This document shows positions 4,962-11,293 of a stretch of 11,293 nt of DNA, piece by piece. The notes beneath the pieces were generated by a model. It had not been told where the DNA came from, did not search any database, and saw only the letters and a list, made by a program, of their open reading frames with translations. This stretch comes from a virus (Duplodnaviria; Heunggongvirae; Uroviricota; Caudoviricetes). The translations under genes and the position numbers were made by a program. The stretch is from the IMG/VR virus record IMGVR_UViG_2703718818_000011. One strand, given 5' to 3'. Position 1 is the stretch's first letter; each line of letters opens with the position of its first letter.

Positions 4962-6488
4962 TCAAAAATAAACCTCACCATCAACCATATATTTGAGAGT
5001 ACTTATCGCCTGCTGGGCGGATATTGTTTTCATTAAAGGATAGTGTTTAAAAACAATGCCATTCATAAAATAGATATCACAGGTTTTATTATCTGTATTG
5101 ATTATGATTTTTTCGAATGTTTTATAGGCAAGTGTACGACATAGCTCTCGCCCATTTTTACTGGTTAAGTCAATAGCATGAAAATCACCAAGTGAACTCA
5201 CCGCTTTACTCTTCAAAGTTTTTAATGATACAGAAGCCCTTCGTAATTCCTTATCTAATACTCTGATTTTTTCTGCTATAGCGGTAACTTCAGGCGCAAC
5301 AGATAATGCAGCAATTAAATTATTAATTTTCATCTGGAGCTCAATAATTTTCAACTCTAAAGTTTCATTAGCATCTTTCTTGTTTTCAACTGGTTGGATT
5401 TTACTACAATTAAAAAGCAACTCATTAATGATATTATAATCAACCAAATCTCTCTTTATTGATGGCCTGTCACATCGATGCAGTCTTCTCATCGGACAAA
5501 CATAATAGCCATGCAAACTTCCAGATACCGCATGAACAATCATGGTATTACCACAAGCCTCGCACTTCATAACTGTTCGAAGTAGATTTATCAACATAGG
5601 ATTTTTGCTACTATTGCTAATACCAAAAGGTGCCAACCGAATTTCCTGCACAGCGTAAAACAAATCATCTGATATGACTCTGGGATAATAGCCAGCGATT
5701 TCACTTATTCCTTTACCTCTTGCACGATATGAAGGTACGCATATACCTATCAGAGCTTTATTCGCTAATAATTTTTCAATTACAGAAGGTCCCCATGCAC
5801 TTTCTTTTCCTGAGAAATTCTTTACAGCATGATCATTTAAATACTTGGCTATTGCATTCAATGAGCGCCTTTCCATCCTGAGTTTAAAAATTAGCTCAAT
5901 AGTTTTCACCCTGTCGGGGTCTGGAACAAAAGCCGTTCTTTTGTCATCCAATGAGAGCCATCTCGGACAAGACGCCGTCATAATCGTGCCTGACTCCAGT
6001 GCATCCTGCCGTTTTTTCTTCCATGATAATTTAACCCGACTTGACTTTATCTCGCTTTCTTCATTTGCCCTTTGTGCTATAAGTATGGCTTTTATTAATG
6101 AATATGGCTCATTCAATGAGTCAATATTATAGACTGTATTATCGCAAAGAGTTATAACATCAATACCGTGATTCAAAATCAATTTCAGACGCTCAATCGC
6201 CTCACCGACTTTTTCTCTTGAAAGTCTGTCCAGACTTTCAACTAACAATGTAGTCCCTGGCAATATATAACCATGTTCTATAGCATCTAAAAATTCCGAA
6301 AAAGCTCCTGATTGTGCATGCTTTCCATTGAATGCGCTTAACCCCAAATCTTCATACGTTACGGTATCAAGGTAATAATCACTATTTACCTTTAGCCATT
6401 CAGTAATAAGCCTTCTCTGGCGGTTTAATGAATCACCAGACATCTGACTTGGTGATGAAAATCGCATATATGCTATGGCTTTTTTCAT
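4962..6488 (-). CDS. ybcK: Large serine recombinase (resolvase/invertase-type catalytic domain, recombinase domain, Cys-rich zinc-ribbon-like segment), YbcK-like
   Basis: 508-aa ORF. The N-terminus AIAYMRFSSPSQ carries the serine-recombinase catalytic serine motif, with ..LVESLDRLSR.. following. A Cys cluster (CEACGNTMIVH...YYVCPMRRLHRCD) lies in the C-terminal half. Length and position next to emrE match K-12 DLP12 YbcK as remembered. The gene is strongly AT-rich, with an AT-rich 255-bp upstream region. Confidence 0.85.
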   Translation of the reverse strand: MKKAIAYMRFSSPSQMSGDSLNRQRRLITEWLKVNSDYYLDTVTYEDLGLSAFNGKHAQSGAFSEFLDAIEHGYILPGTTLLVESLDRLSREKVGEAIERLKLILNHGIDVITLCDNTVYNIDSLNEPYSLIKAILIAQRANEESEIKSSRVKLSWKKKRQDALESGTIMTASCPRWLSLDDKRTAFVPDPDRVKTIELIFKLRMERRSLNAIAKYLNDHAVKNFSGKESAWGPSVIEKLLANKALIGICVPSYRARGKGISEIAGYYPRVISDDLFYAVQEIRLAPFGISNSSKNPMLINLLRTVMKCEACGNTMIVHAVSGSLHGYYVCPMRRLHRCDRPSIKRDLVDYNIINELLFNCSKIQPVENKKDANETLELKIIELQMKINNLIAALSVAPEVTAIAEKIRVLDKELRRASVSLKTLKSKAVSSLGDFHAIDLTSKNGRELCRTLAYKTFEKIIINTDNKTCDIYFMNGIVFKHYPLMKTISAQQAISTLKYMVDGEVYF

Positions 6489-6743
6489 GGTGACACCTGC
6501 TAAAGTATGCTTTTATAAACCTTAGTGGTGAGATATGATTTTTGTTTAATTTTTATTTAAAAAGACAATTAAGGTCACATTATCTTGAATATACAACAAT
6601 AATCGTATTGCAATTTTCTTACACCATAATCTTGAAAGCACAAAAGAATGAATAAAAACTAAAGACATTAACAAAAAGCATAAAACGAGGCCCATATAAA
6701 TATACGAGCCTCCATATTTTAGTCGTTTAAAAACAAATTATTT

Positions 6744-7076
6744 TTAATGTGGTGTGCTTCGTGACAATAAATTAATAACCAACACACCGGCACAAATCAA
6801 CATCATGCCTATAATGGCTGGCAGGTCCAACCGTTGGCCGAAAAATCCCCATGATAGTAAGCTAATCAGGACAATACCGACTCCTGACCAGATAGCATAA
6901 GCAATCCCTGTAGGAATATAAGCCAGCGTCTGAGCTAATAACCAGAATGATGCACAATAACAAATAATTGTACCAACAGATGGCCATAACCGTGTAAAAC
7001 CTTCTGAAAACTTCATTAAGGTTGTACCAATGACCTCTGCAAGTATTGCACCACCAAGATAAATATAAGGATTCAT
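6744..7076 (-). CDS. emrE: Small multidrug resistance (SMR) family efflux transporter EmrE, 110 aa
   Basis: Translation MNPYIYLGGAILAEVIGTTLMKFSEGFTRLWPSVGTIICYCASFWLLAQTLAYIPTGIAYAIWSGVGIVLISLLSWGFFGQRLDLPAIIGMMLICAGVLVINLLSRSTPH matches E. coli EmrE essentially residue for residue as remembered. The true start is the ATG at 7076 with an AGGAAAG ribosome-binding site; the 128-aa track ORF starts at an upstream in-frame ATG. Confidence 0.95.
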   Translation of the reverse strand: MNPYIYLGGAILAEVIGTTLMKFSEGFTRLWPSVGTIICYCASFWLLAQTLAYIPTGIAYAIWSGVGIVLISLLSWGFFGQRLDLPAIIGMMLICAGVLVINLLSRSTPH

Positions 7077-7091
7077 AGCATATTCTTTCCT

Positions 7092-7126
7092 GTTCAAACT
7101 GGAGAGAATTGTACTACAGTTTGAAC
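7092..7126. promoter_or_regulatory. Perfect 10-bp inverted repeat (gttcaaactg / cagtttgaac, 15-nt spacer) between ren and emrE, directly upstream of the emrE ribosome-binding site
   Basis: Positions 7092-7101 and 7117-7126 are exact reverse complements. No T-run follows on the minus strand, so it is more likely an operator, RNA structure or module-boundary hairpin than a canonical terminator. Confidence 0.5.
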
Positions 7127-7143
7127 TCAACTCACCTGTTTCA

Positions 7144-7446
7144 TCATTGTGTACCCATTGATGTTCTTTTATATACCCTCAATACCCGTTTCATCGCGGC
7201 ACTCTGGCGACACTCCTTAAAAATCAAATTCGTGCTCACCTTTCCTTCCCATTCTTCTCTGGTAGCGAACCGATAATACACCGTTCGCCAGACCTTACCA
7301 TCAACGACTAGGATTCCTGCCCGCGCCATTTTAGCCGCAGCCTGATTTATGCTGGTTACCGTTGCGCCTGTTACCGCGGCAACGTCCTGCGCACAGAATT
7401 TCTTATGAGTCCCCAGGTAATGAATAATTGACTCTTTGCCCGTCAT
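7144..7446 (-). CDS. ren: Ren-like protein (lambda ren homologue), 100 aa
   Basis: Translation MTGKESIIHYLGTHKKFCAQDVAAVTGATVTSINQAAAKMARAGILVVDGKVWRTVYYRFATREEWEGKVSTNLIFKECRQSAAMKRVL... is very similar to lambda Ren as remembered. Its ATG overlaps the stop of P (ATGA), as in lambda. Confidence 0.85.
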   Translation of the reverse strand: MTGKESIIHYLGTHKKFCAQDVAAVTGATVTSINQAAAKMARAGILVVDGKVWRTVYYRFATREEWEGKVSTNLIFKECRQSAAMKRVLRVYKRTSMGTQ

Positions 7447-8144
7447 ACCCTTGCTCCTTTCAGCCCAAACTTAGCTTTGATTTCTGCGATCTTCGCCAGA
7501 GCCTGTGCACGATTTAGAGGTCTACCGCCCATGACAGGAAGTTGTTTTACTGGTTCAGGTATAGCCTCACCACGGTTAATTCGTGCGGTCATACAGGACA
7601 GTTCATCGGCAGCCTTGCGCCGTAATTCCGCGTCAGTCAACGCATTGGCCCGCATGTTCTGATACAGGTTGGTAACCAGCCAGTAGTGCGCGTTTGATTT
7701 CCACGGATAAGACTCTGCATCCGGATACAGCCCGCGCTTCCGGCAATACTCGTAAACCATATCAACCAGCTCGCTGGCGTTTGGCAGCCCGGCGGTAACG
7801 GATGCTTCTTCCCGGCACCAGGCGACAAACTGCCCGGGTGATGGCAGGAATGGTCGATTCTGCCGACGGGCTACGCGCATTCCAGCGTTAACCTGTTCCA
7901 TTGTGGTGATCCCGTTTTCCCGAAAAGCCAGCACCCACTGGCGGCGGATTTCGTTCAGTTCATTCTGGTCACGGTTAGCCAGGCTCGCCGGGAAAGTTGC
8001 CAGTAACTGGCTGAACACACCGTTGATGATCTGCGCTACCTGCTGTACCTGTGGCTTTTCGTCGTACTGTTCCGGCATGTTGTTGGCGATCCGACGCATC
8101 TGCTCACGGTCAAAGTTAACCATCTGTGCGGCGATGTTTTTCAT
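7443..8144 (-). CDS. P: Lambda-type replication protein P (DnaB helicase loader), full length, 233 aa
   Basis: Translation MKNIAAQMVNFDREQMRRIANNMPEQYDEKPQVQQVAQIINGVFSQLLATFPASLANRDQNELNEIRRQWVLAFRENGITTMEQVNAGMRVARRQNRPFLPSPGQFVAWCREEASVTAGLP... is near-identical to lambda P as remembered, with the same length. Confidence 0.9.
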   Translation of the reverse strand: MKNIAAQMVNFDREQMRRIANNMPEQYDEKPQVQQVAQIINGVFSQLLATFPASLANRDQNELNEIRRQWVLAFRENGITTMEQVNAGMRVARRQNRPFLPSPGQFVAWCREEASVTAGLPNASELVDMVYEYCRKRGLYPDAESYPWKSNAHYWLVTNLYQNMRANALTDAELRRKAADELSCMTARINRGEAIPEPVKQLPVMGGRPLNRAQALAKIAEIKAKFGLKGARV

Positions 8145-8395
8145 AGATCCACCCCGTAAATCCAGTCAGTGTTTGTCAGGTCGAGTTTTGGTTTGCCGAC
8201 TGTCACGCCAGCCTGTTGCTTGTTCCGGTTGATTTCGAGCTGGGTCCACTTGTCGCGGAGTTTGGCCGGACTCAGCACGTTACCGGACCAGAAGTTGTCC
8301 TGGCAGGCCCAGCGGAACAGTACACACATGTCGCGGTGGTTACGTCCATCACGTTCACGCATCAGACGGATATCGTTAGGCGCGATCACTTTCGT
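8141..8395 (-). pseudogene. O: C-terminal fragment (~83 codons) of replication initiator O; the N-terminal origin-binding part and the ori iterons are absent
   Basis: Translation ...IAPNDIRLMRERDGRNHRDMCVLFRWACQDNFWSGNVLSPAKLRDKWTQLEINRNKQQAGVTVGKPKLDLTNTDWIYGVDL matches the P-interacting C-terminus of lambda O as remembered, overlapping the P start. The frame is closed by an in-frame TAG just upstream (~8396-8398). Confidence 0.65.
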
Positions 8396-8503
8396 CTACT
8401 CCATTACAAAGCGAGGCTGGGTATTTCCCGGCCTTTCTGTTATCAGAAATCCACTGAAAGCACAGCGGCTGGCTGAGAAGATAAATAACAAACAGGAGGA
8501 TAT

Positions 8504-9568
8504 ATGAGTCAGGTTGGTAATCATTCATTCGAATTTCCGGCATCGCAAGGTGTACAGGGTGGTACTGTTACACTCTTCCTTACCATACCAGGAAGATCGC
8601 TGGCTCGTTTCCTCGCTTCAGATAATTACGGCCATACACTGGAACGCTCTCAGCGAGAAATTAATCCAAATCGAGTACGAAAATTTTTAAATTATCTCAC
8701 TAACGCAGACTCAAGAAATGAGCCTTTTATCATTCCCCCTCTCGTAGGTAACTGTGATTCGAATATAGAATTTGTACCGTTTGGCAACACAAATGTTGGT
8801 ATAGCCAGAATTCCCCTCGACGCCGAAATAAAACTTTTTGATGGTCAACATCGTGCAGCTGGCATTGAGATATTTTGCCGAAGTTCCCCATCAACGCTCA
8901 TGGTTCCCATGATGCTTACAATGAATCTGCCGCTAAAAACCCGGCAGCAGTTCTTTTCGGACATAAATAACAACGTTTCTAAGCCATCAGCGACCATCAA
9001 TATGGCGTATAACGGCCGGGATGATATTGCTCAGGGAATGATATCCTTCCTGACCCAACATACTGTATTTGCCGATATAACCGATTTTGAACACAACGTA
9101 GTGCCATTAAAAAGTAATATGTGGGTGAGTTTCAAGGCACTCACTGATGCAACGTCAAAGTTCGCTAGGAACGGCAATCAACAACTTGAAATGGGATATA
9201 TAGAATCTGTCTGGGAGGCATGGATTACACTAACTCAGATTGACTCAATCCGACATGGTGTACACCACGCTACGTACAAGCGCGATTATATTCAGTTCCA
9301 TGGAGTAATGATTAACGCTTTCGGTTTTGCGGTTCAACAGATGATGGTTAATCATTCCATCGCAGAAATAACTTCTATGATCGAAAAACTATGTGCAACT
9401 ACCAGCTCTGCAGAAAGAGAGGATTTTTTTCTGATGGATAACTGGGCGGGGATCTGCACGAAAGCCAGCCAGGAAAAACTATCTGTTATTGCCAATGTGG
9501 CAGCGCAGAAAGCAGCAGCAAACAGACTGATACAAGCTTTTACCAAAGGAAGTCTGGAAACAACTTAA
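8504..9568 (+). CDS. DGQHR-motif protein (DndB-like family), 354 aa; orphan, with no dnd/dpd partner genes in the window
   Basis: Complete ORF with a strong Shine-Dalgarno (AGGAGG at 8494-8499) and ATG at 8504. The protein contains the diagnostic motif ..EIKLFDGQHRAAGIE.. at about residues 108-121, and its size is in the DndB range. It is AT-rich relative to the flanking P/O' and xis/int, and is followed by a hairpin plus T-run. Confidence 0.75.
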   Translation: MSQVGNHSFEFPASQGVQGGTVTLFLTIPGRSLARFLASDNYGHTLERSQREINPNRVRKFLNYLTNADSRNEPFIIPPLVGNCDSNIEFVPFGNTNVGIARIPLDAEIKLFDGQHRAAGIEIFCRSSPSTLMVPMMLTMNLPLKTRQQFFSDINNNVSKPSATINMAYNGRDDIAQGMISFLTQHTVFADITDFEHNVVPLKSNMWVSFKALTDATSKFARNGNQQLEMGYIESVWEAWITLTQIDSIRHGVHHATYKRDYIQFHGVMINAFGFAVQQMMVNHSIAEITSMIEKLCATTSSAEREDFFLMDNWAGICTKASQEKLSVIANVAAQKAAANRLIQAFTKGSLETT

Positions 9569-9645
9569 TGAATCAACATTGTCTCATATCAGCATGCTGT
9601 ACGGCGTCTTTAAGGAACGGTGAGCATGAAAAACAAAATCATCAT

Positions 9646-9669
9646 GGAGCTACAGGCTCCTTTTTTATT
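9646..9669 (+). terminator. Candidate rho-independent terminator downstream of the DGQHR gene
   Basis: ggagc (9646-9650) / gctcc (9656-9660) stem with a 5-nt loop, followed by TTTTTTATT (9661-9669). The stem is only 5 bp, so this is a weak terminator. Confidence 0.4.
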
Positions 9670-9782
9670 ATTAATCGGACTTGTGCAAGTTGCCAGGAGG
9701 AGATCGAACTTAAGAACAAACAATGGGGACTGTGATGGCTTCAAAGCAGCAAATTTCAACATCGTCCAACTGAGGTGTAAAA

Positions 9783-10022
9783 ATGTTCAGAATCATTTTT
9801 CCTAACACCTGGTACGTCGACCACCACGGCACTCCCTGCAAAATCCTGCGTTCTACCCACAACAAAGTTCACTACATCCGAAAAGGCAGAACATGTATCG
9901 CCAGCATGTTCCGCTTTAATCATGACTTTGAACCTGTGAATAAAGCTGATGCAGATCGAATAGCAGAAGAGATCGAAACGGCAGAACACATTAAGAAGTT
10001 ACGTGCCATACGCAGGAAATAG
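9783..10022 (+). CDS. Hypothetical small protein, 79 aa, between the DGQHR gene and xis
   Basis: ATG-initiated ORF with a GAGG about 7 nt upstream, on the same strand as xis/int. Small proteins are common directly upstream of xis in lambdoid prophages, but I recognise no motif. Confidence 0.35.
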   Translation: MFRIIFPNTWYVDHHGTPCKILRSTHNKVHYIRKGRTCIASMFRFNHDFEPVNKADADRIAEEIETAEHIKKLRAIRRK

Positions 10023-10161
10023 AAAAATTGATAAATTCAATACTGCATTACTCAGCATTAAATTTATCTCTATGACCAGTCAAGAGATGTACCTGCCATG
10101 AGCTTAATATCATGTCAGATATATCGGTCACAAACTCCCTCAGCAGCTAAGAGGAGGACAA

Positions 10162-10398
10162 ATGTCTCGACTAATCACTTTACAGGACTGGGCTAAAGAA
10201 GAATTTGGGGACTTAGCACCAAGTGAGCGAGTTCTGAAAAAATACGCGCAAGGGAAAATGATGGCCCCACCCGCTATAAAAGTTGGTCGCTACTGGATGA
10301 TTGACCGAAATTCCCGTTTTGTAGGAACGCTTGCAGAACCGCAACTCCCAATAAACGCAAACCCAAAACTCCAACGGATAATCGCTGATGGCTGCTAG
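10162..10398 (+). CDS. xis: Excisionase (lambda Xis-like), 78 aa
   Basis: The N-terminus MSRLITLQDWAKEE... and ...APPAIKVGRYWM.. parallel lambda Xis (MYLTLQEWNA... / ..FPPPVKDGREYL..) as remembered. It has a strong ribosome-binding site (AAGAGGAGG) and overlaps the int start by 11 nt, as in lambda. Confidence 0.7.
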   Translation: MSRLITLQDWAKEEFGDLAPSERVLKKYAQGKMMAPPAIKVGRYWMIDRNSRFVGTLAEPQLPINANPKLQRIIADGC

Positions 10399-11293
10399 AC
10401 CCCGATCTCACAAAATCTCTATACCCAATTTATATTGCAAATTAGATAAGCGAACCGGAAAGGTATATTGGCAATACAAACATCCACTATCCGGTCGTTT
10501 TCATAGCTTAGGAACTGATGAGAATGAAGCAAAACAAGTTGCTACTGAAGCAAATACCATTATTGCTGAACAACGTACCAGACAAATATTAAGCGTCAAT
10601 GAGCGTCTGGAAAGAATGAAAGGCAGGCGCTCAGACATTACGGTGACAGAATGGCTTGATAAATATATTTCTATCCAGGAGGACAGGCTGCAACATAATG
10701 AACTAAGACCCAACTCCTATCGGCAAAAAGGCAAACCCATTCGTCTTTTCCGTGAGCATTGTGGAATGCAACACCTCAAGGATATTACCGCACTTGATAT
10801 TGCCGAAATAATTGATGCTGTAAAGGCTGAAGGTCATAACAGGATGGCGCAAGTCGTGAGAATGGTGTTGATCGACGTCTTCAAAGAAGCACAACACGCA
10901 GGACATGTTCCGCCAGGATTTAACCCTGCGCAGGCAACAAAACAACCGCGAAATCGAGTAAACCGCCAAAGATTGTCACTGCTCGAATGGCAGGCAATAT
11001 TTGAAAGCGTAAGCAGACGGCAGCCCTATTTAAAATGCGGCATGCTACTTGCTCTTGTTACTGGACAACGTTTAGGCGATATCTGCAATTTGAAATTCTC
11101 TGATATATGGGACGACATGTTGCACATTACTCAGGAAAAAACCGGTTCAAAACTTGCTATTCCGCTTAACCTGAAATGCGATGCTCTGAATATTACCCTT
11201 CGTGAAGTTATATCTCAGTGCAGGGATGCTGTTGTTAGTAAATATCTGGTCCATTACCGTCACACTACCTCTCAAGCAAACAGAGGAGACTAG
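10388..11293 (+). CDS. int: Lambda-family tyrosine integrase, N-terminal ~300 aa; the frame ends at TAG 11291-11293, before the expected HxxR / H / Y catalytic residues, so it is probably a pseudogene
   Basis: Translation MAARPRSHKISIPNLYCKLDKRTGKVYW... and ...LALVTGQRLGDICNLKFSDI...QEKTGSKLAIPL... aligns by eye to lambda Int (MGRRRSHERRDLPPNLYIRNNGYY..., ..LAVVTGQRVGDLCEMKWSDI..., ..QSKTGVKIAIP..). Lambda Int continues about 55 aa further with FHELRSL...LGHKS...ASQY; here the frame ends ..ANRGD then TAG at the last base of the window. Confidence 0.8.
   Translation: MAARPRSHKISIPNLYCKLDKRTGKVYWQYKHPLSGRFHSLGTDENEAKQVATEANTIIAEQRTRQILSVNERLERMKGRRSDITVTEWLDKYISIQEDRLQHNELRPNSYRQKGKPIRLFREHCGMQHLKDITALDIAEIIDAVKAEGHNRMAQVVRMVLIDVFKEAQHAGHVPPGFNPAQATKQPRNRVNRQRLSLLEWQAIFESVSRRQPYLKCGMLLALVTGQRLGDICNLKFSDIWDDMLHITQEKTGSKLAIPLNLKCDALNITLREVISQCRDAVVSKYLVHYRHTTSQANRGD

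Follow-up and report, generated by a model that had tools for sequence, protein, structure and literature searches.

Introduction

DndB acts as a dimeric repressor at its own promoter and regulates dndBCDE/dndCDE (PMC4507180), and its autoregulation is cited elsewhere as being modulated by ATP. DpdB, a ParB-like ATPase, is required for the insertion of preQ0 into DNA by DpdA and is stimulated by DpdA-DNA (PMC10164549). Prophages are enriched in fusions of a ParB-CTPase fold with methyltransferases, and binding of both ATP and GTP has been found for a DndB-like protein (PMC12704722). Sensor domains of the DUF262 or ParB-like type are also known to sense modified DNA (PMC12065111; PMC11662687). 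Here we examine a DGQHR-domain (DndB-family) gene of 354 amino acids (aa) located at positions 8504-9568 on the plus strand of an 11,293-nucleotide (nt) stretch of phage DNA (IMG/VR record IMGVR_UViG_2703718818_000011), which was analysed over its whole length and is called the window below. The window is approximately 100% identical to a decayed lambdoid prophage located at icd (the e14 site) in Escherichia coli strains such as NCTC9100.

A preliminary description, made from the sequence alone, had regarded the function of this gene as undescribed, and for the searchable literature we agree. Searches on DGQHR, DndB-like proteins and the RefSeq accession returned nothing about this protein, and no paper was found on a mobile-element DGQHR clade or on its linkage to methylases. 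The gene and its family are catalogued in RefSeq (as 'DGQHR domain-containing protein', WP_000084449.1), NCBIfam, Pfam and PHROG without a described function. At a coverage of at least 80% the gene was observed in 282-283 of 5426 complete E. coli genomes (~5%), and in one complete E. coli genome (H22) it is interrupted by IS1. The reading we prefer, with a probability of roughly 45%, is that the product is an early-expressed, nucleoside triphosphate (NTP)-switched DNA-binding helper or regulator of a mobile element's DNA-modification or anti-restriction programme, and that the copy in the window is stranded.

Results

Protein family and predicted structure

The assignment to the DGQHR/DndB family made in the preliminary description was upheld by profile searches. 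The 354-aa protein passed the NCBIfam DGQHR-domain model TIGR03187 with 188.8 bits (cut-off 58.85) and the Pfam DndB model PF14072 with 158.2 bits (cut-off 29.1; E = 3.8e-46), and failed the DndB equivalog model TIGR03233 with 106.9 bits (cut-off 328). Among the PHROGs, phrog_7901 was matched over the full length (E = 7e-216), with its function annotated as unknown. The generic DndB hidden Markov model (HMM) of PADLOC-DB 2.0 was also matched (E = 4.3e-37), while no system-specific model of that database beyond this generic HMM was matched and no partner genes were reported. A comparison with 35 homologues (52-73% identity) gave 96 invariant positions, all of which are present in the window copy, and in this sense the gene is intact as had been claimed. 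The motifs invariant in these homologues are RSQRE (residues 48-52), DGQHR (113-117), QFFSDINNN (149-157) and DFE (194-196). DGQHR, the phosphate-binding motif of the ParB fold, is encoded by the codons GAT GGT CAA CAT CGT at 8840-8854 (plus strand).

The AlphaFold2 model of the protein (mean predicted local distance difference test score, pLDDT, of 80.7) contained an alpha/beta N-terminal domain of approximately residues 1-165 and a helical C-terminal domain of approximately residues 170-350. The N-terminal domain is predicted to adopt a ParB/sulfiredoxin (Srx) fold and is NTPase-like. A structural search of BFVD matched viral models named 'DNA-sulfur modification-associated' as well as GmrSD-N-like models (E = 3e-7 to 1e-3). 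Foldseek against the PDB returned nothing at E <= 0.001 and a profile search of PDB sequences returned nothing at E <= 1, so the family has no solved structure that can be found by sequence. The 354 residues correspond to the expected DndB architecture without an additional effector domain (nuclease, toxin or membrane), and no recognisable helix-turn-helix (HTH) was observed in the protein by Pfam or in the predicted structure. From the fold and motifs we infer that the protein may bind both NTP and DNA.

Phage relatives and their methyltransferase neighbours

Gene neighbourhoods were surveyed at 22 genomic and 80 viral loci, where open reading frames (ORFs) were called and clustered and representatives were annotated by Pfam and PHROGs. 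Functional temperate phages carry homologues of 61-65% identity. In Salmonella phage SPN1S and its kin the gene order is DUF1317 - DGQHR - MT-A70 methylase - int, in Klebsiella phage ST101-KPC2phi6.3 a dATP/dGTP pyrophosphohydrolase follows the DGQHR gene, and in a Vibrio prophage-like phage (~33% identity) the order is DGQHR - C5 methylase - int. Across the clade of 59-74% identity, a DNA methyltransferase was observed no more than three genes downstream in 42 of 60 scorable loci, or in 14 of 29 groups formed at 97% identity. The methylases beside the relatives came from four unrelated families, MT-A70 (PF05063), Dam (PF05869), N6_N4 (PF01555) and C5 (PF00145), and DGQHR proteins at least 97% identical to one another were paired with differing families, so the methylase appears to be interchangeable. 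The DGQHR gene of these relatives usually overlaps the next gene by 4-8 nt, and a phrog_323 HTH gene (154 or 173 aa) is often placed between it and the methylase. In a neighbour-joining tree the E. coli allele was sister to a 73% clade with MT-A70 directly downstream, which suggests that the partner was lost or replaced in the E. coli allele.

The phrog_323 protein, annotated as 'transcriptional regulator, D5-like', has multiple HTHs and a weak GcrA-like match, and was observed at loci L003, L011, L012 and L072 as well as at many IMG/VR loci. Possibly the module has this protein as its third component.

The gene had been described as standing alone, and no dndACDE, dndFGH or dpd genes were found in the window, nor in the closest genome over a distance of 6 kb. 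Neighbouring dndC, dndD or dndE genes were observed neither in the window, nor at the 33 loci with the same allele, nor at the 60 loci of the 59-74% relatives, and no TGT-like gene (dpdA) was present in the window or at loci with the E. coli allele. A positive control, the Halobacteriovorax locus L030 (25% identical; DndB - PAPS_reduct (DndC) - SMC-like (DndD)), was the sole dnd context recovered. With no such genes beside the close relatives and the true dnd locus only 25% identical, we rejected a dnd/dpd operon fragment as the origin of the gene. The concern raised earlier, that the homologues might belong to dnd/dpd operons, thus proved wrong as worded and held in a modified form: most homologues open a DGQHR-(HTH)-methyltransferase module, which the window copy is without.

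Plasmid relatives

A relative of ~42% identity was observed in 1071 PLSDB plasmids, 885 of them conjugative. On IncL/M plasmids it is found within a same-strand block together with JAB/RadC, an HTH gene, DUF4942, Hha, DUF1380, an antirestriction gene and ssb. The relative adjoins PsiA in Buttiauxella and related contigs, and on one Citrobacter plasmid it is followed by a PAPS-reductase-family gene. These neighbourhoods look like the plasmid leading region, a zone in which anti-defence genes and orphan methylases are over-represented (PMC11541004); DndB/DGQHR proteins are not mentioned in that paper.

The exo-xis cargo slot

The gene is located between a truncated O gene (O') and xis/int on the int strand, as had been noted, but the immunity/rex/N position assigned to it was not supported. 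The sequences flanking the gene at 8377-8506 (lambda orf61/DUF1317) and 9588-9672 match lambda-like phages without the DGQHR gene, e.g. 2B8, at ~92% identity. Since the flanks are lambda orf61 and phage backbone, the gene occupies the exo-xis region of the pL operon, directly after orf61/DUF1317, and not cI/rex/N. These conserved flanks define a cargo cassette of 1081 bp (8507-9587, plus strand), the counterpart of which in 2B8 measures 445 bp and contains a DUF1382 gene and a small ORF ('Phage protein'). Judged from the flanks, the DGQHR gene is swap-in cargo of a lambdoid exo-xis slot with the order exo - orf61/DUF1317 - [cargo] - TraR - DUF4222 - xis - int. The position after DUF1317/orf61 holds a Dam-type methylase in PhiR30_1 (L117, 3108-3665) and, in place of the DGQHR gene, a TGT/DpdA-like gene in SfI (L116, 3609-4361), and on this comparison DNA-modification cargo appears to collect in the slot as at a hotspot.

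A hairpin with a T-run (GGAGC TACAG GCTCC; 9646-9672, plus strand) is present downstream of the gene, as described, and is terminator-like. It could not be retained as the gene's own terminator, being part of the backbone common to 2B8, which is without the gene.

An allele differing by one residue was observed at the DLP12/argU-fimZ site, in prophages where cI, rexA, rexB, kilR and gam are still present, and also in IMG/VR prophage contigs with gam-bet-exo. Because this near-identical allele sits in more complete prophages, the intactness of the gene points to a recent origin and not to host selection, and the proposal that it was retained while essential functions decayed around it loses its force. 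A 5.5-kb contig labelled 'MAG: Bacillota bacterium' (L009, JAEWTL010000063.1) contains the E. coli prophage arm at ~100% identity, with the gene order kilR-gam-bet-exo-DUF1317-DGQHR-TraR-DUF4222, and is almost certainly an E. coli binning contaminant.

The reading frame and its surroundings

The strong ribosome-binding site previously described was confirmed as a Shine-Dalgarno sequence, AGGAGG, at 8494-8499 (plus strand), with the ATG 5 nt further on. The ATG of the DGQHR gene overlaps the TGA of the DUF1317/orf61 ORF (ATGA), and an overlap of this kind indicates translational coupling. No sigma-70-like promoter was found by a consensus scan of 7900-8504, i.e. between O' and the DGQHR ATG, the scan being crude consensus matching. 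Owing to this overlap and the lack of an upstream promoter-like site, the gene is regarded as a member of an operon and not as a self-contained unit.

Base composition had been put forward as a distinguishing feature of the gene. Its GC content (0.429) is indeed lower than that of O'/P (0.55), but is the same as that of int (0.430) and close to that of DUF4222 (0.446). The low GC is a property of the entire exo-xis-int arm and not of the DGQHR gene alone, and we discarded the idea of an AT-rich island, the gene having the same GC as int, xis and DUF4222. The inverted repeats near the gene were all intragenic and unremarkable. The window contains no exact copy of the DndB box (TACGN10CGTA) and three matches with one mismatch, a number at chance level, all far from the gene.

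The window, the prophage and its deletions

In NCTC9100 the minus strand carries, in order, tail-fibre remnants, the ybcK recombinase, emrE, ren, P and O', and the plus strand carries exo, DUF1317, DGQHR, TraR/DksA, DUF4222, xis and int, followed by icd. Within the window, a C-terminal remnant of the replication gene O (an 82-aa ORF at 8141-8389, minus strand) forms the left edge of a deletion of cII-cro-cI-rex-N-cIII-kil-gam-bet; the corresponding place in RefSeq NCTC9100 is annotated 'replication protein, incomplete, missing N-terminus'. A chimeric remnant of the DUF1317/lambda orf61 type lies at 8328-8507 (plus strand; Pfam DUF1317, E = 9e-23) and consists of antisense O' before 8378 and of DUF1317 from 8378 onward. 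Following the DGQHR gene on the plus strand are a 3' remnant of the TraR/DksA zinc-finger gene (9675-9735), the DUF4222 gene (9783-10022), which is a conserved downstream neighbour in the prophage arm, the excisionase gene xis (10162-10398) and the integrase gene (10388-11293), which runs past the end of the window and in the closest genomes is inserted at icd (the e14 site).

Two stretches of NCTC9100 are missing from the window, one of 677 bp (exo together with the 5' end of DUF1317; junction 8377/8378, with a short ATATC..TA microhomology) and one of 207 bp (the 5' part of TraR/DksA and upstream sequence, with an AA filler at 9673-9674). These deletion junctions were not shared by the twelve best complete E. 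coli genomes listed, all of which keep the extra 884 bp.

Several features elsewhere in the prophage were also observed. The stretch at 1539-2510, situated between tail-fibre gene remnants, has a GC of ~0.61 and an AT skew of -0.35 to -0.39, and contains overlapping ORFs of 249 aa (Ala/Asp-rich, plus strand; RefSeq 'hypothetical protein') and 322 aa (Arg/Gln/Pro-rich, minus strand). It resembles repetitive tail-fibre sequence, and which of its frames is the true one is uncertain. At 4962-8144 (minus strand) there is a block of the ybcK-type serine recombinase, emrE, ren and P that is familiar from the K-12 DLP12 prophage; because it sits within an icd-integrated element, the element is a mosaic of lambdoid modules. 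An AT-rich inverted repeat with a 16-bp stem, terminator-like on the minus strand, was found at 10030-10068 between the DUF4222 gene and xis.

Outside the window, approximately 1.3 kb past its left end, NCTC9100 (L002, 1650-4723) has an McrC gene and a 651-aa AAA ATPase. The two form an McrBC-like type IV restriction pair, which adjoins the icd' duplicate at the distal end of this prophage remnant. The arrangement is reminiscent of mcrA on K-12 e14.

Discussion

The preferred reading, a helper or regulator of the mobile element's DNA-modification or anti-restriction programme, would work as follows. In an intact phage the DGQHR gene would be read from pL, with its translation coupled to that of orf61, and the product would be made at infection or induction and be absent in the lysogen. 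It would act on newly entered or replicating DNA in the service of the element's modification or anti-restriction programme. It could do this by aiding a DNA-modifying enzyme, in the way that DpdA is served by the ParB-like ATPase DpdB, or by tuning the expression of such an enzyme, as DndB does for dndCDE; its usual partners would be orphan DNA methyltransferases of any family. The window copy is left without pL, the 5' end of orf61 or a methyltransferase partner, and is most likely a recently stranded passenger that is not kept for the host.

A number of observations weigh against this proposal. For the E. coli allele, none of the 33 scorable loci had an adjacent methylase, TraR/DksA being the gene that follows, and about half of the relatives' lineages likewise lack one, so a methylase partner is not obligatory. 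Other neighbours were also seen (the dATP/dGTP pyrophosphohydrolase, HNH, unknowns), and the adjacency of methylases could be a mere reflection of a shared cargo slot. The counts themselves come from crude ORF calling (ATG starts only) and, for the IMG/VR loci, from samples that are not independent. On the plasmid side, an IS1B splits the relative in a large and widespread 63.6-kb IncL/M lineage (L118, 6989-9048, Klebsiella; H113-H125), from which it follows that the gene is dispensable for the spread of that lineage; it is intact in pCTXM360. In the literature, no experiment on the DGQHR protein or its clade was found.

For the window copy alone, whatever the family does elsewhere, we see an even chance that the gene is a silent hitch-hiker, unexpressed and inactive in its genome. 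pL, N and the start of orf61 are deleted, a terminator-like hairpin follows the gene, the upstream ORF is chimeric over the deletion junction, and the neighbouring exo and TraR are deleted or truncated in comparison with all of the closest genomes listed. The interval between O' and the ATG is without a promoter-like site, although the scan was crude and transcription by read-through or of antisense origin from the O'/P side is possible, and the strong ribosome-binding site and intact frame persist.

The exo-xis location also bears on a second explanation, in which the protein is a DndB-like, NTP-modulated repressor or activator of early-operon or host genes that biases the choice between lysis and lysogeny, with no direct link to DNA modification. 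The exo-xis genes orf60a, orf61, orf63 and ea22 affect lysogenisation and induction, according to the literature on them, and the DGQHR gene takes the place of precisely such small genes. DndB itself is a dimeric repressor on its own promoter (PMC4507180), and the small HTH gene (phrog_323) often comes after the DGQHR gene. We nevertheless consider a developmental regulator unlikely, with no DndB box near the gene and no recognisable HTH in the protein, and with the linkage to four methylase families and the ssb, antirestriction and psiA contexts on plasmids left unexplained by it.

The structural matches raise a third explanation, that of a stand-alone anti-defence protein whose ParB/DUF262-like domain binds modified (methylated, phosphorothioated or other) or entering DNA and shields it from modification-dependent or phosphorothioate-sensing nucleases whose own sensor has this fold (GmrSD/BrxU, SspE, DndI), or from McrBC-type enzymes. 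The predicted fold has kinship with the DUF262 sensors of SspE and BrxU and with the viral GmrSD-N models, and DUF262 domains sense modified DNA (PMC12065111; PMC11662687). Nearby methylases would make the DNA a target for type IV enzymes, the family is found in early-expressed zones of both phages and plasmids, and the source element adjoins the McrBC-like gene pair. This line of argument is inferential throughout, and no anti-defence annotation or experiment was found in the literature; we judge such a shield to be rather improbable.

Prophage accessory slots often carry defence genes, several defence systems use ParB/DUF262 sensor domains, and this gene is intact within a decayed prophage and present in ~5% of complete E. 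coli genomes, all of which would suit the suggestion in the preliminary description of a single-gene prophage defence or superinfection exclusion factor, or else a protein that senses foreign modified DNA, maintained for the benefit of the host. This is the weakest of the readings and a very unlikely one: an effector domain (nuclease, toxin or membrane) is absent from the protein, which matched a generic DndB HMM and no system in PADLOC; the gene, as a pL-operon member without its own promoter, should be repressed and silent in the lysogen, which argues against a host-protective exclusion factor, and pL is deleted in the window; the same allele in fuller prophages makes intactness a sign of recency and not of selection; and the gene or its relative is split by IS1 elements in one E. 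coli genome (H22) and in many IncL/M plasmids.

At the level of the window these results change little, as the gene already had an annotation and its copy in this genome is probably silent. The lead lies with the family, an uncharacterised protein of predicted ParB fold that is conserved in the early operons of temperate phages and in entry-phase blocks of clinically important plasmids (IncL/M), and that is repeatedly coupled to interchangeable DNA methyltransferases. If the protein is a helper or regulator of protective methylation, or a blocker of modification-dependent restriction, it would be a new component of the survival of mobile DNA at entry, and ParB/DndB-type NTP switches would extend past segregation, phosphorothioation and deazaguanine systems. 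A wider proposal, which we hold to be doubtful, is that the mobile-element DGQHR clade, comprising the phage exo-xis cassettes, the Vibrio phages and the plasmid relatives, forms an undescribed entry-phase anti-restriction class, an NTP-driven DNA clamp that would accelerate any orphan methyltransferase of the element (or host Dam/Dcm) or would shield modified incoming DNA from modification-dependent nucleases whose sensor has this fold.

Comparison with known systems

The DndB proteins of Salmonella Cerro 87 and Streptomyces lividans (TIGR03233) are like the window protein in the PF14072 match, the DGQHR motif, a length of ~355 aa and the predicted arrangement of a ParB/Srx N-terminal domain with a helical C-terminal domain. 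The window protein differs in failing the equivalog cut-off and in being only ~25% identical to a genuine DndB (L030), and its gene is without dndCDE/FGH and the TACGN10CGTA box and has its home in the early regions of phages and plasmids.

DpdB offers the best functional analogy, as a ParB-like NTPase that is encoded together with a DNA-modifying enzyme and needed for its action. The window gene has no adjacent dpdA/dpdC and its product matched no DpdB-specific model, and the partners of its relatives are methyltransferases, of which the window copy has none. The fusions of ParB-CTPase folds with methyltransferases resemble the present relatives in joining a ParB-fold NTP module with N6_N4 or other methylases in phages, with a suspected anti-defence or phage-host role. 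In the relatives described here module and methylase are encoded separately and frequently flank an HTH gene, the ParB-fold module belongs to the DGQHR/DndB type and brings a C-terminal domain of its own, and the methylase family varies freely.

The lambda exo-xis genes (orf61, orf63, orf60a, ea22) share with the DGQHR gene their slot and transcription unit and are likewise non-essential early accessory genes, whereas the DGQHR gene is unrelated to them in sequence, much larger, and takes the place of the equivalents of orf63 and orf60a. The DGQHR proteins of IncL/M and other conjugative plasmids (e.g. WP_011091054.1 of pCTXM360) have the family in common with the window protein, at ~42% identity over ~310 residues, and are encoded in a block of entry-phase genes. 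They differ in their greater length (427-438 aa), their plasmid context and the IS1B disruption in the 63.6-kb lineage, and are also uncharacterised. Lastly, the DUF262 sensors (SspE, DndI, GmrSD/BrxU, Menshen NsnA) have in common with the window protein the superfamily, an NTP motif of the DGxxR type and a comparable helical domain after the ParB-like domain (PMC12065111).

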